This document shows positions 26,252-31,623 of a DNA stretch of 43,294 nucleotides, in pieces (positions within the stretch are counted from its first letter, which is position 1; every line of letters begins with the position of its first letter). This DNA is from a virus. Location: IMG/VR virus record IMGVR_UViG_3300026223_000001, one strand, 5' to 3'. The position numbers and the translations under genes are program-made. The notes beneath the pieces are model-generated. The model ran no database searches. It had not been told where the DNA came from and saw nothing but the letters and a program-made list of their open reading frames with translations.

Positions 26252-26439
26252 GCAGTCACCACGATAGTTGTTTCCCGAAGTTTCTTTATCAGGTCGCGCA
26301 CTGCCGTTTCGCGTTCATCGAGAAACGTGAGAACGCGCCGAGCCTCGGGCCAATCTGGATACTGCTCAGCCATTTCTCGCAAAGGGGCGCCGGCCTCCAG
26401 TACTCGCTCGAGATGACTCATATCAACTTGCATCACCAC
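26248..26439 (-). CDS. Hypothetical protein (63 aa)
   Basis: Track ORF. Overlaps the TerL stop by 7 nt. Confidence 0.5.
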   Translation of the reverse strand: MVMQVDMSHLERVLEAGAPLREMAEQYPDWPEARRVLTFLDERETAVRDLIKKLRETTIVVTA

Positions 26440-28643
26440 TCCATTCTGACGTTAATATCGGGCGGGTGGGTAGGTTCGGAGAAGCGGTAGCTATCGGCCA
26501 TCATAGCATAGCGGTCGCAGTCGTAGGGATGGTCCTCGGCCTCGGTGTTCGTTACAAGCACGCCGTTAGCGTAATACAGGTGCGCGGCGTTCACGGTCAG
26601 ATTGTACACCCGCCTGACGCCTACGGAGTGCCCAGCCGCAGCGATACGAACAGGTTGTGGTCTTCGCGTCAATCGTCCGAAACGCTGCAGCGCACTCACT
26701 GCAAATCCGTTCAGGCTGTCGCGCCACCCGGTCGAGATAAGCGCACCGGGGCGAGCAGAGAATCTTTCGAGGATGTCTTGTTCTAAAAGTGACTCGACAA
26801 TATCCACACGCCAGTTCATGTTCAGGGGATCGTTCACGCATTTTGACGGCATTGGCGCGGAGAATCCTCCGGCCTCTTTCCGTCCCTCGCCACTCATGGA
26901 GACCGCGCTTCTGTACTGGGTTAGCGTTGCGGGCAGCGAGATGGAGAGAGGCGTGGTCACTGGGGCTAAGAACATGGAAGTTGGACGGCTCGTTGTGGGA
27001 TGTGTCGCCATCTTCGTGATGAACGTGGTAGCCCTGCGGAATCCCTTTGCCCACGATGGCATGAACGTCTCGGTACTGCGGTTTCTTGTATGGCATACGA
27101 TGTTCTTCTGCATCAGTGTATCATTCTTCCGCAGAGCCGACAACGGCACAAGACCGTGACCGCGCACGTAGACCTTGTGGTCGAGAGTGCCTTCGAGAAA
27201 CTGGCCGCCTGACAGAGGCACGTGAATAACCGGGGCGTCGCCGGAAATACCGTCTTTGATGATGGGACAGGGGCCGATGGGGGTATCCACCAACTCTCCA
27301 GCCTGTAATGTTTCAATTGCGCGATCTCCGTCCGGCGTCGATACCATCGTGCCCGCTACGAAGCAATCGACGTCTTCGATGTTCAATTCGTCCCTGGGCA
27401 AATTAGGAATGGTGCGAATGGCGTTGGGGCAATCCGTCGTCCAAACCCAGCGCGGCGGCATAATCAACTCGCCCAGATCGCCAACGTGTTCCGCCTTAGC
27501 CCGTATCCACCGGAGGTTCTTGCGGAACAAGTTAATGCCAGCCTGGCGGTTGTTGTTGCCCTTCGTCAGCGGCACACCGCCCTCGCGGTATTCGTCGGCC
27601 ACGGAATTGCCGACCGTCTCCTTACGCTGCTGCCACATCGAGGGGTCGCCCACGTACATCGAAATCCTTTCGTTTTTGCCTGCCGCCCGGATCATTTGAG
27701 CCTGTTCGGTGGCATGATGGCCGGGGCCGTACAACTCCCGGTACGTCACCACGCGCTTCTTATCTGGGCGGCGAGCGTGCCAGTGAGCGCAAAACGGGGC
27801 CATGTAGCCGTAGTCCACGCTGACGAACCGCGTCCAGTCCTTCGGTATCTCGAACGGCTGGATCACGTGCAGGTCGCGCCGCCAGACGTCGGCGAAGACC
27901 ATTCCCTCGGCGATGTCCCAATCGCCGTATCTGAGCGCCCGCGCCATGTCGCCGCCCATCGCTAACAGCGTCGCCTCGTAGCCGGGGTTGAGCGCCATGC
28001 CGATGGGGTTGTCCTCGAGCGTAGCCGGGATGAATCGCCGCGTGCGCGTCAGCTTCGAGCCATCGGCCAGGGTGATTGTGATCGGGTGCGAGCCGCCCAA
28101 CGGGTGTGGGTCGATGTAGCGTTGTTTCACCCAGCCATGCCCCAGGCCGCCGGGGTTCGTCGTCGCCGAGACCAGCGGCTTGCAGCCGGCGATCTTGCTC
28201 CGGCAGAAGGCGTTGACGTAGTTGAAGTCGTCCTCGTTCGGAAACTGCGTCAACTCCTCCCAGCCGATGTCCTCCCAGGCCGTCCCCTGCTGCCGGTAGC
28301 GGTCCTCTGAGTGATCCATGAAGTCGAACTTCATCACGGACCCGTTGTGAAACGTGAACTTGTGCTCGTCGCCCTTCCACGCCGCCCGCCCCTTGAGCAC
28401 TTCCATCGCCCGGGGGATCATCGCCCCCTCTTTCGTCAGGTCCGTCAAGTGACGCCTGAGAATCAGCGCTGCGCTCCCTGGATACTTCTCGCGCCGGAGG
28501 ATCATCTTGGCCAAGAGCGCCTCCGTCTTGCCGCCCCAGGCAGCGCCGCCGTACAGCACCTCGTCCTCACTGGCTCGCAGAAACTCCCGCTGCTTCTCCT
28601 GCAACTTCCACTGCCGGGGCCCCGCGTCAGGTGCCTGCGTCAC
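26433..28643 (-). CDS. terL: Terminase large subunit precursor, interrupted by an intein (736 aa; extein 463 aa)
   Basis: Walker A YGGAAWGGKTEA lies near the N-terminus. The C-terminal nuclease motif is ...NIEDVD|intein|TEAEDHPYDCDRYAMM. Exteins are 27366..28643 and 26433..26546. Confidence 0.85.
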   Translation of the reverse strand: MTQAPDAGPRQWKLQEKQREFLRASEDEVLYGGAAWGGKTEALLAKMILRREKYPGSAALILRRHLTDLTKEGAMIPRAMEVLKGRAAWKGDEHKFTFHNGSVMKFDFMDHSEDRYRQQGTAWEDIGWEELTQFPNEDDFNYVNAFCRSKIAGCKPLVSATTNPGGLGHGWVKQRYIDPHPLGGSHPITITLADGSKLTRTRRFIPATLEDNPIGMALNPGYEATLLAMGGDMARALRYGDWDIAEGMVFADVWRRDLHVIQPFEIPKDWTRFVSVDYGYMAPFCAHWHARRPDKKRVVTYRELYGPGHHATEQAQMIRAAGKNERISMYVGDPSMWQQRKETVGNSVADEYREGGVPLTKGNNNRQAGINLFRKNLRWIRAKAEHVGDLGELIMPPRWVWTTDCPNAIRTIPNLPRDELNIEDVDCFVAGTMVSTPDGDRAIETLQAGELVDTPIGPCPIIKDGISGDAPVIHVPLSGGQFLEGTLDHKVYVRGHGLVPLSALRKNDTLMQKNIVCHTRNRSTETFMPSWAKGFRRATTFITKMATHPTTSRPTSMFLAPVTTPLSISLPATLTQYRSAVSMSGEGRKEAGGFSAPMPSKCVNDPLNMNWRVDIVESLLEQDILERFSARPGALISTGWRDSLNGFAVSALQRFGRLTRRPQPVRIAAAGHSVGVRRVYNLTVNAAHLYYANGVLVTNTEAEDHPYDCDRYAMMADSYRFSEPTHPPDINVRMEW
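26547..27365 (-). mobile_element. Intein (273 aa) in the TerL nuclease domain
   Basis: Starts CFVAGTMVSTPDGDRAIETLQAGELV (block A) and contains GTLDH (block B TxxH). Ends VYNLTVNAAHLYYANGVLVTN followed by +1 Thr. Codon positions were checked against track coordinates (Cys codon 27363-27365, Asn codon 26547-26549). Confidence 0.8.
26566..27096 (-). CDS. HNH endonuclease (176 aa) nested in the intein, in a different reading frame from TerL
   Basis: Track ORF. YRDVHAIVGKGIPQGYHVHHEDGDTSHNEPSNFHVLSPSDHASLH is an HNH motif. Followed by CGYCRVTF...LCSPRCAY and CSECAAAF...CSYRCG zinc knuckles. (28643-27096) mod 3 = 2, so it is out of frame with TerL. Confidence 0.75.
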   Translation of the reverse strand: MPYKKPQYRDVHAIVGKGIPQGYHVHHEDGDTSHNEPSNFHVLSPSDHASLHLAARNANPVQKRGLHEWRGTERGRRILRANAVKMRERSPEHELACGYCRVTFRTRHPRKILCSPRCAYLDRVARQPERICSECAAAFRTIDAKTTTCSYRCGWALRRRQAGVQSDRERRAPVLR

Positions 28644-31469: not shown

Positions 31470-31623
31470 GCGTTACACTCAAATCATGGTGGGCAAGAAG
31501 ACGCAGAAGACCCCGAAGGGCTACGAGATTCCAGTACCGACACGCAAGGACTTCGACGCGATCTTGGACAAGGTAGCGAAGCCCCCGAAGCGCTCAACTC
31601 CCAAGCGCCGCCCGACCAAGTAG
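31468..31623 (+). CDS. Small basic protein (51 aa) divergent from the 271-aa gene
   Basis: Internal ATG of track ORF 31288..31623, preceded by GAGGAAGG at 8-nt spacing. MRYTQIMVGKKTQKTPKGYEIPVPTRKDFDAILDKVAKPPKRSTPKRRPTK. Confidence 0.45.
   Translation: MRYTQIMVGKKTQKTPKGYEIPVPTRKDFDAILDKVAKPPKRSTPKRRPTK

Follow-up and report, generated by a model that had tools for sequence, protein, structure and literature searches.

An HNH nuclease gene nested out of frame within a phage terminase intein: a predicted composite homing element with relatives in many bacterial and archaeal lineages

In a viral DNA of 43,294 nucleotides (IMG/VR record IMGVR_UViG_3300026223_000001, the whole of which we call the window), the gene for the terminase large subunit (TerL) is interrupted by a class-1 intein, and a gene for an HNH nuclease is written over the middle of that intein on the same strand in the -1 frame. 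We consider it probable that the insert is a composite selfish element in an essential gene, made of a cis-splicing intein and a homing nuclease that would be translated as a protein of its own. The same -1 nesting was found in 15 further loci from viruses or metagenomes, four of which belong to cultured phages, and in 28 prophage or metagenome-assembled genome (MAG) loci. Coordinates of all features are collected in Table 1.

The TerL gene contains a class-1 intein with exact boundaries

A preliminary description of the window, made from its letters alone, held that the 736-residue TerL is interrupted after NIEDVD by an intein of 273 codons. An intein-less homolog, P0006 (462 residues, found in a metagenome assembly at NCBI and in a Logan run), belongs to the same protein cluster as the window TerL, is 96% identical to it in amino acids and reads ...NIEDVD/TDAEDHPYD..., where the slash marks the junction. 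In the P0006 gene (locus L006), exactly the 819 nucleotides of the proposed intein are absent, the exteins are continuous and 89% identical in nucleotides, and the junction is ATCGAAGACGTGGAC/ACTGATGCCGAAGAT. The alignment to an intein-less TerL, which the preliminary description had proposed as a check, thus gives the same boundaries to the base. P0006 also decided the identity of the host protein, since it matches the terminase large subunit families of PHROGs (phrog_979, E 8e-42; phrog_2, E 3e-25). The Terminase_6N match of TerL in the Pfam profile search was weak, and searches of solved structures and Pfam with the intein-less TerL gave nothing, or sub-threshold Terminase_6N only. A similarity search of the TerL gene DNA against deposited phages gave no match, and protein-level searches were required.

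Profile searches were run on the two frames separately, as had also been proposed. The TerL frame matched Hint_2 at residues 427-455 (E about 1e-6 to 3e-6) and the intein C-terminal region TIGR01443 at residues 679-700 (19 bits, with a cut-off of 15.6 bits), and the shifted frame matched HNH_3. The first residue of the intein (C1) is Cys427 of the precursor, in the block A sequence CFVAGTMV, and block B reads GTLDH. Both assignments had been made in the preliminary description, and C1, T60 and H63 are invariant in 14 inteins of the family. At the other end, blocks F and G read VYNLTV...HLYYANGVLVTN/T, where N273 is invariant and the following extein residue is T, S or C in 14 of 14 family inteins. 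The penultimate residue, a Thr that had been thought unusual, is T, S or H across the family alignment, and the window intein does not stand apart in this respect.

In the AlphaFold2 (AF2) model of the TerL-frame intein, residues 1-90 and 241-273 have pLDDT (predicted local distance difference test) values of 87-97 (93-96 for the C-terminal lobe), while residues 91-235 reach only 37-65. Foldseek superposed the confident parts on the mini-inteins gp41-1 (6qaz, TMt 0.86), RecA and DnaB with probability 1.0 and TMt up to 0.87, so the two lobes are predicted to form a HINT fold. The window and all six assemblies that we fetched carry a single 736-residue open reading frame (ORF), unlike a split intein or a fractured gene. 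Taken together, the comparison with the intein-less allele and the conserved motifs confirm, at the level of sequence, that the insert is a class-1 intein with exact boundaries. That TerL undergoes protein splicing we infer from the essentiality of TerL, the intact splicing residues, the predicted fold and the exact intein-less allele.

An HNH nuclease ORF lies in the -1 frame of the intein

The preliminary description also pointed to an ORF on the same strand with its own ATG and with a TGA nine codons upstream in its frame, and these features are read directly from the sequence. The offset, (28643-27096) mod 3 = 2, places the ORF in the -1 frame of TerL. The arrangement is thus not that of a canonical in-frame HNH intein: the frames are one base apart, and the nuclease frame is closed by the TGA nine codons before its ATG. 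The shifted ORF matches HNH_3 (PF13392) with 26.9 bits (E 3.8e-6), above the Pfam cut-off of 24.8 bits, and it matches phrog_15471, 'HNH endonuclease', with E 9e-17.

The assignment as a textbook HNH nuclease with two pairs of zinc knuckles was borne out by the family alignment. Among its 62 members, 12 residues are invariant (H26, H27, N39, H48 and eight Cys), and all 12 are kept in the window ORF. It contains the catalytic His, Asn and His of the beta-beta-alpha-metal motif, from which nuclease activity is predicted. When modelled by AF2 with the 62-sequence alignment, the HNH protein had a mean pLDDT of 90.1; only the first ~10 and the last ~15 residues were weak, with values of 58-73 in the tail. 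The best match of the family profile among the sequences of the PDB was the HNH homing endonuclease I-HmuI (1u3e, E 0.0011).

Selection acts on the nuclease frame and the TerL frame stays open

The central codons of the TerL frame had been described as non-protein-like yet free of stops, as if the frame were kept open across the nuclease gene. The low pLDDT of residues 91-235 agrees with the first point, and the relatives agree with the second. Across the nuclease ORF, the TerL frame is free of stops in each of the 13 complete nested loci, and 4-33 stops fall in the third frame. We permuted synonymous codons with the HNH protein kept fixed. For the window, 0 TerL-frame stops compare with 2.2 expected, and 3.4% of the shuffles were stop-free (P 0.034). 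The P values of the individual loci ranged from 0.37 to <0.0002, with 0.0002 for Highwayman and 0 of 5000 shuffles for phiCDHM19. In a set of prokaryotic genomes the TerL frame was open in 28 of 28 nested copies versus 0 of 23 free-standing copies (mean 3.5 stops per 100 codons), and the annotated free-standing relatives in PAE1, CL2 and BP10 have 4, 12 and 8 stops in the equivalent frame. The host frame is thus open beyond chance across the nuclease ORF, as in inteins that carry a homing endonuclease in an alternative frame.

When the same aligned DNA was translated in both frames, identity was higher in the HNH frame than in the TerL frame in all 91 pairs of loci (mean 0.39 versus 0.23). Nucleotide differences peak at the third position of the HNH codons: the counts for positions 1/2/3 are 7828/7205/10241 overall, 40/32/78 between loci L009 and L010, and 68/54/91 between the window and its closest relative, L030. 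This comparison of codon positions in related phages had been proposed in the preliminary description, and the result, with the 91 of 91 pairs, points to purifying selection at the protein level on the nuclease frame. The only constraint detected on the TerL frame across the overlap is that it stays open; judged from these alignments, the linker appears to be filler. That it might be a conserved folded domain was ruled out by its pLDDT of 37-65 and by the lower TerL-frame identity in every pair.

The host frame is always +1 of the HNH gene and never +2. Shuffled sequences and free-standing relatives usually have far fewer stops in the +1 frame (0.75-5 versus 6-35 expected), which may explain why a published out-of-frame TerL intein has the same offset.

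The nuclease ORF and the C-terminal Hint lobe share DNA

The preliminary description placed the nuclease over the intein linker. This holds for most of the ORF, but its last ~30 codons also overlap the C-terminal Hint lobe. The last zinc knuckle, TCSYRCGW, and the Hint strand PVRIAAAG (predicted by AF2 as a strand at intein residues 239-241) are encoded by common DNA, and the HNH tail lies over block F. The overlap is kept in relatives, in which the nuclease ends in ...TCSYRCGWALRRKNAGLQPDG and a stop over PVRIVAVG..VYNLTV. Its register is identical in the clade with insertions at site A (Table 1) and in the clade of Highwayman, TJE1 and phiCDHM19, which argues that the composite was ancestral and moved as a unit.

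Two variants have a split-like arrangement at this junction, and they were the only ones found. The P0002 protein (SRR5450756_326295) reads ...CSYRCGW/HSVGVRRVYNLTV...TEAVDHPYD, in which the HNH protein continues in frame into the C-terminal Hint lobe and the C-extein; a genome with this variant would have TerL split into two overlapping ORFs, as in a split intein. P0002 implies GG in place of the GGG run in the window. The variant could be a read error, given its adapter-derived tail and one extra substitution. Exact look-up of the P0001 and P0002 contigs found no record; both come from protein-level read assembly with adapter-derived tails. In the other variant (L105:2054-4569, Planctomycetota MAG contig CAWJTV010000011.1, 1.49 Mb), the N-extein and the N-terminal Hint lobe are in one frame, and the HNH protein, the C-terminal Hint lobe (VYDLHVEDAHEFYANGILVHN/C) and a C-extein of ~300 residues form a single open segment of 568 codons in the other. 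Its intein lies in the ATPase domain (Walker B region), and it represents either a split-type arrangement of natural origin or a prophage terminase in decay. A further protein from the representative search, P0069 (359 residues), opens in the TerL/Hint frame, switches in mid-ORF to the HNH frame (...GKRILRENARKMHERTP...) and leaves it near the end; this copy has extra frameshifts, from either decay or sequencing error.

We put forward only tentatively a broader proposal, that this is an old, widespread and undescribed family of composite mobile elements in viral terminase genes, in which an intein and an HNH gene of free-standing type are joined physically by true dual coding, the knuckle TCSYRCGW sharing its DNA with the strand PVRIVAVG, and that it interconverts through single-base changes at the 3' junction between the nested out-of-frame endonuclease, an in-frame fusion of endonuclease, C-intein and C-extein (P0002, L105), and the mini-intein. 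If so, the family would be a living intermediate that links free-standing homing endonuclease genes, contiguous inteins and split inteins.

Spread of the nested layout

The exact 736-residue TerL product is encoded on at least 15 contigs of ~43.3 kb. In the six contigs that we fetched (four JGI samples and two ENA MEGAHIT assemblies), the TerL gene differs from the window by 0-1 nucleotide, and the intein has no differences.

A pattern scan of IMG/VR with the HNH ORF gave 13 loci with HNH proteins 35-48% identical to that of the window, and all with enough flanking sequence have the same layout. In these relatives a TerL ORF of 560-1156 codons runs through CWVAGTMV..., a T-x-x-H block, ~190 junk-like stop-free codons and PVRIVAVG..VYNLTV..HLFYANGILSSN/T, and an HNH ORF of ~195-225 codons with its own start lies in the -1 frame. 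A tblastn search of deposited phages found -1 nesting in Tetrasphaera phage TJE1, Acinetobacter phage Highwayman, Rhodobacteraceae phage LS06-2018-MD07 and Clostridium phage phiCDHM19; phiCD119 also matched. Further nested examples are the short contig L030, L031, a contig from marine sediment, and several proteins that carry shadow motifs, ITKMAT among them. When one genome was scanned for each prokaryotic species, a long HNH match was obtained at 58 loci: 28 lie at -1 within a long ORF that has Hint motifs, 2 are probably nested and 28 are free-standing. The nuclease frame is the -1 frame of TerL in every nested relative, and no fully in-frame relative was found among the 58 genome loci or the top 150 representative proteins. 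Word-indexed searches with the single HNH or intein sequence gave 2 matches each; the exhaustive representative search and the pattern scans were more informative.

The nested host proteins of the genome set are mostly TerL, from bacterial and archaeal MAGs and prophages, and the hosts comprise Firmicutes, Proteobacteria, Actinobacteria, Bacteroidota and archaea. There are three insertion points, all within about ten codons of the TerL nuclease motif. With the same register in divergent TerL proteins of bacterial and archaeal viruses and at three neighbouring points, the composite would be both old and mobile. The deposited records annotate the region only as terminase large subunit or, in phiCD119, as hypothetical protein, and the literature collection searched contains no paper linking inteins with TJE1, phiCD119, phiCDHM19 or Highwayman.

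Several further observations concern single loci. A second intein stands beside the nested-HNH intein in L096:806-4564, L101:2-3667 and L034:431-3907, with LAGLIDADG in two of them; their sources are MAGs of Isosphaeraceae, Nitrosotalea and Halobacteriales, and the family thus extends to viruses of archaea. In L031:2400-3130 (ERZ940452), TerL changes frame upstream of the nested-HNH intein, and the called genes of 376 and 378 residues make up one terminase; the change could stem from an indel in the assembly, from a pseudogene or from a programmed shift. As to the window itself, the ~43.3-kb sequence was assembled repeatedly in several samples (contigs of 43,266-43,308 nucleotides) with differing start points and orientations, which fits a complete phage genome, circular or circularly permuted, that is nearly clonal from sample to sample. 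A gene ~3 kb upstream of TerL in this ~43-kb genome, at about window position 31594 and upstream, matches the transposase family DDE_Tnp_IS1595.

Table 1. Features of the TerL intein and the nested nuclease ORF in the window, and insertion sites in the family
Feature	Coordinates	Strand	Basis or remark
TerL precursor ORF	26433..28643	minus	736 aa, read through the intein; ORF call
N-extein, TerL aa 1-426, ending ...NIEDVD	27366..28643	minus	alignment with intein-less P0006
Class-1 intein, 273 aa, Cys1...Asn273, then Thr+1	26547..27365	minus	exact absence in L006/P0006; Hint_2 and TIGR01443
N-terminal Hint lobe, intein aa 1-90, blocks A and B (CFVAGTMV...GTLDHKVYV)	27096..27365	minus	pLDDT 87-97; Foldseek
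TerL-frame linker, intein aa 91-235, stop-free apparent filler overprinted on the HNH ORF	26661..27095	minus	pLDDT 37-65; stop count; identity comparison
C-terminal Hint lobe, intein aa 236-273 (PVRIAAAG strand, blocks F/G VYNLTV...HLYYANGVLVTN)	26547..26660	minus	pLDDT, TIGR01443, family alignment
C-extein (TEAEDHPYDCDRYA..., TerL nuclease-domain motif) and stop	26433..26546	minus	ORF and P0006 alignment
Nested HNH endonuclease ORF (predicted), 176 aa and stop, own ATG, frame -1 relative to TerL	26566..27096	minus	ORF call, HNH_3, phrog_15471, AF2
HNH catalytic core, ORF aa 24-52: HVHHEDGDTSHNEPSNFHVLSPSDHASLH	26941..27027	minus	invariant H26, H27, N39, H48; I-HmuI profile match
Zinc ribbon 1, C97-x2-C100...C114-x3-C118	26743..26808	minus	four Cys invariant in 62-sequence alignment
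Zinc ribbon 2, C132-x2-C135...C149-x3-C153	26638..26703	minus	four Cys invariant in 62-sequence alignment
HNH-frame TGA, nine codons upstream of ATG	27121..27123	minus	read from sequence; closes the frame toward the N-terminal Hint lobe
Dual-coding stretch: HNH 3' end (aa ~146-176 and TGA) over the C-terminal Hint lobe in the TerL frame	26566..26660	minus	ORFs, sequence
GGG run	26631..26633	minus	GG, implied by P0002, puts HNH in frame with C-terminal Hint lobe and C-extein
Site A, D-[VI]-D/T-x-x-E-D-H			window and ten others
Site B, AEDH/SYDSLRY			LS06
Site C, H..DA/C			three cultured phages

Origin, turnover and expression of the nuclease

An exhaustive search of 1.84 billion representative proteins gave 735 relatives of the nuclease, nearly all of them stand-alone proteins of ~190-225 residues. 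With the more than 40 nested loci, this agrees with the proposal in the preliminary description that a nuclease gene of free-standing type is nested out of frame. Annotated free-standing copies adjoin terminase genes in PAE1 (Orf3, between TerL and portal), CL2 (CL2_3, likewise) and BP10 (UYL86055, upstream of TerS), and the BP10 copy is 51% identical over its full length to the nested copy of Highwayman.

Forms with the nuclease missing were also found. P0167, a Highwayman-like TerL with 28 cluster members, has a mini-intein of 126 residues at the Highwayman site. When L032:658-2334 (Logan SRR32613794) is compared with Highwayman (L023), a mini-intein of 126 residues stands against an intein of 327 residues, and ~630 nucleotides of the HNH gene are missing. 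The mini-intein keeps the DNA for both the Hint strand and the HNH tail, and its sequence suggests that it arose by deletion. With intein-less, mini-intein, nested and free-standing copies, all stages expected of a homing-endonuclease cycle are present.

A core resembling a Shine-Dalgarno (SD) sequence (GGAG, GAGG or AGGA) lies 4-18 nucleotides upstream of the putative HNH start in 9 of 15 loci, against a background of 12% inside the same genes (binomial P ~1e-5, uncorrected for relatedness). These motifs favour independent internal initiation. In nearly all loci the HNH frame has a stop 3-26 codons upstream of the start. In the window, no -1 slippery heptamer was seen by eye between the TGA at 27121 and the ATG at 27096.

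A proposed composite homing element and its alternatives

We propose that translation in the TerL frame would produce an N-terminal Hint lobe, an unstructured linker of ~145 residues and a C-terminal Hint lobe, and that the intein would then excise itself and ligate ...NIEDVD to TEAEDH..., restoring the TerL nuclease motif. The HNH and double zinc-ribbon gene, of free-standing type, would be translated from the internal ATG as its own protein of 176 residues. Most likely this protein would act as a homing endonuclease that cuts intein-less TerL alleles during co-infection, and repair would copy the whole element. Selection acts on the nuclease frame, and avoiding stops is the one constraint visible on the TerL frame across the overlap.

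Several points weigh against this proposal, and most of them concern the copy in the window. No SD-like motif lies upstream of its ATG (duplex -1.0 kcal/mol, background quantile 0.73). The ORF is without ~30 N-terminal residues (VxYxGxxYxRYxGRxYY) that most relatives have, and it deviates at two nearly invariant positions, with H34 for N and F40 for L. Taken alone, its stop avoidance reaches only P = 0.034, and the P values combined over loci overstate independence, because the loci are phylogenetically related. The contigs of the window type are virtually clonal; they exclude an error but carry no evolutionary signal for this copy. A Foldseek search of the PDB with the HNH model gave nothing significant (top hit I-HmuI 1u3e, E 0.26, template modelling score 0.25), probably because the model is elongated and has several domains. 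Finally, it is from comparison and modelling that we infer the splicing of TerL, the separate translation of the nuclease and its activity, its homing and its cleavage target.

The first three of these points, the SD-like motif being present in 9 of 14 relatives, could also mean that the nested layout is real but that the window HNH is inactive or barely expressed, a remnant after fixation that is turning into a mini-intein and on which only the need to avoid stops is left. The life cycle of homing endonucleases predicts such decay, and other lineages have mini-intein derivatives at the same sites. We regard this as possible but rather doubtful. The ORF is intact, it keeps 12 of 12 invariant catalytic and zinc residues and is modelled with a pLDDT of 90, and its differences from L030 still peak at the third HNH codon position. 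L030/P0007, the closest relative (HNH 52% identical), has the same short N-terminus yet a strong SD sequence (GAGAGGGA), which argues that the short form is a maintained subfamily. Targets for homing are available, since the intein-less allele is in circulation among related phages. The window copy, belonging to the short subfamily and having no obvious ribosome-binding site, may nevertheless be weakly expressed or at the start of decay. It is unlikely that the nuclease is instead a packaging accessory working with the terminase, like HK97 gp74-type proteins, and encoded in the TerL intein by chance. Free-standing relatives do adjoin terminase genes in PAE1, CL2 and BP10, and zinc-ribbon HNH genes are noted beside cos sites and terminase genes in the literature (PMC3592412). 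But a TerL that is 96% identical does without intein and nuclease, and no HNH gene lies in the surrounding 7.3 kb; mini-intein versions have no nuclease; the best solved relative of this HNH_3 protein is the homing endonuclease I-HmuI; and mobility would fit the sporadic occurrence at three insertion points in TerL lineages that are unrelated.

The two remaining explanations would join the frames into one Hint-HNH-Hint polypeptide, and both draw on P0002. Programmed frameshifting (-1 near 27100 and +1 near 26630) would yield a conventional intein, and the fusion of the HNH protein to HSVGVRRVYNLTV... and the C-extein in P0002 (a protein-level assembly from SRR5450756) and the same fusion in L105 speak for it. 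We consider it highly improbable: the upstream HNH-frame stop, nine codons away in the window, leaves a tiny space that has no slippery heptamer; the TerL frame, which would not need to stay open for ~190 codons, has no stop in any nested locus; with a +1 return after ...CGW, the conserved Hint strand PVRIAAAG, which is predicted in the fold, would be lost; and SD-like motifs precede the start codon. An assembly artefact, in which two compensating indels of one nucleotide disguise an ordinary in-frame HNH intein, finds a hint in the GG implied by P0002. It is effectively refuted by the agreement of six fetched short-read contigs, by the exact protein on at least 15 contigs, by the two-frame layout in over 40 divergent loci, some of them in finished genomes of cultured phages, and by the absence of fully in-frame relatives from the sets searched. 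The composite of a cis-splicing intein and a separately translated nuclease thus remains our preferred explanation.

Significance and comparison with known systems

Out-of-frame homing nucleases of inteins are not confined to a few actinophages and cyanobacterial dnaX; the layout is stable and selected, it is found in terminase genes of viruses of many phyla, bacterial as well as archaeal, and sequenced laboratory phages (TJE1, phiCDHM19 and Highwayman) carry it. It offers a clean case from nature of overprinting with one of the frames selected just to stay open, and it supports the gain of nucleases by inteins through invasion of free-standing genes. Such nested nucleases are missed by gene callers. 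The family is tractable for studies of internal-ORF translation and of homing by intein and nuclease as a unit, and the apparent tolerance of the intein halves for a junk linker of ~145 residues would be useful for intein engineering. At the family level the result should interest specialists in inteins and in overlapping genes. The family of HNH nuclease and TerL intein appears unreported, and the concept of an out-of-frame intein nuclease is already in print. What is new here is that the nuclease is of a different family, the insertion site is another, the splicing domain takes part in true dual coding and the distribution is far broader.

The preliminary description took known intein homing endonucleases to be in-frame domains, which is contradicted by reports of out-of-frame or antisense examples (Gorbalenya 1998; Gosselin 2025; Phillips 2026). 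Actinophage inteins with endonucleases in another frame or strand, among them an endonuclease VII-like enzyme in 'frame 3' of TerL inteins, were described by Gosselin, Arsenault & Gogarten (bioRxiv 10.1101/2025.01.02.630785). Like the window element, the Keitabear type in that work is a class-1 TerL intein with a nuclease ORF on the same strand in 'frame 3', which is -1 relative to the intein; its host frame is stop-free, its in-frame linker has no recognisable fold, and invasion by a free-standing homing endonuclease gene was proposed as its origin. The Keitabear nuclease is T4 endoVII-like (CxxC...DHDH) and its intein lies in the ATPase domain (...VLVM/C...SHN/TRWHEDD), whereas the window has HNH_3 with two Cys4 zinc ribbons inserted at the nuclease-domain motif (D-V-D/T-x-x-E-D-H). 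These differences in nuclease motif and site rule out that the Keitabear intein belongs to the same family, so the window family is an independent lineage with the same frame offset. It also differs in that the 3' end of the ORF is dual-coded with the C-terminal Hint lobe and in its much wider host range; tblastn with the window HNH found no PhagesDB-type actinophage.

An out-of-frame LAGLIDADG endonuclease in a cyanobacterial dnaX intein goes back to Gorbalenya (1998, as cited), and this LAGLIDADG intein with its +2 ORF has been analysed by Phillips, DeSimone & Gogarten (bioRxiv 10.64898/2026.09.14.751524). As in the window family, the endonuclease frame is under purifying selection and the overlapping host frame is relaxed, and mini-intein and intein-free alleles coexist; for dnaX, a secondary invasion of a mini-intein was proposed. 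The two differ in nuclease (LAGLIDADG versus HNH) and in host gene (cellular dnaX versus phage TerL). A hidden out-of-frame HNH in the absence of an intein, the ShiLan domain, is known from mycobacteriophage DNA methylases (Arsenault et al. 2025, Genes 16:178, PMC11855218). There too the HNH ORF lies out of frame in an open host gene, and how the hidden ORF is translated is a question in both. ShiLan has no detectable splicing domain and is presumably retained in the protein, whereas the window HNH lies in a complete intein that is predicted to be able to remove the filler.

Canonical in-frame HNH inteins resemble the window in that Hint lobes flank an HNH_3-type nuclease, but in them the nuclease is a domain of the intein polypeptide without the two zinc ribbons, and that of the window is encoded by an ORF of its own in another frame. 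The ribonucleotide reductase P0117 (844 residues) has a conventional intein whose in-frame HNH_3 is 38% identical to residues 8-85 of the window ORF and has no zinc ribbons, so the nuclease core has in-frame relatives in other host genes. The fractured genes of Dassa et al. (2009, NAR 37:2560, PMC2677866) also carry a nuclease gene of free-standing type between intein halves, but in the window the host ORF is continuous and the intein is predicted to splice in cis. The free-standing HNH proteins (PAE1 Orf3, CL2_3 and BP10 UYL86055) belong to the same family over their full length, with 27-31% identity to the window ORF; unlike it, they are encoded by stand-alone genes with 4-12 stops in the +1 frame and have no intein around them.

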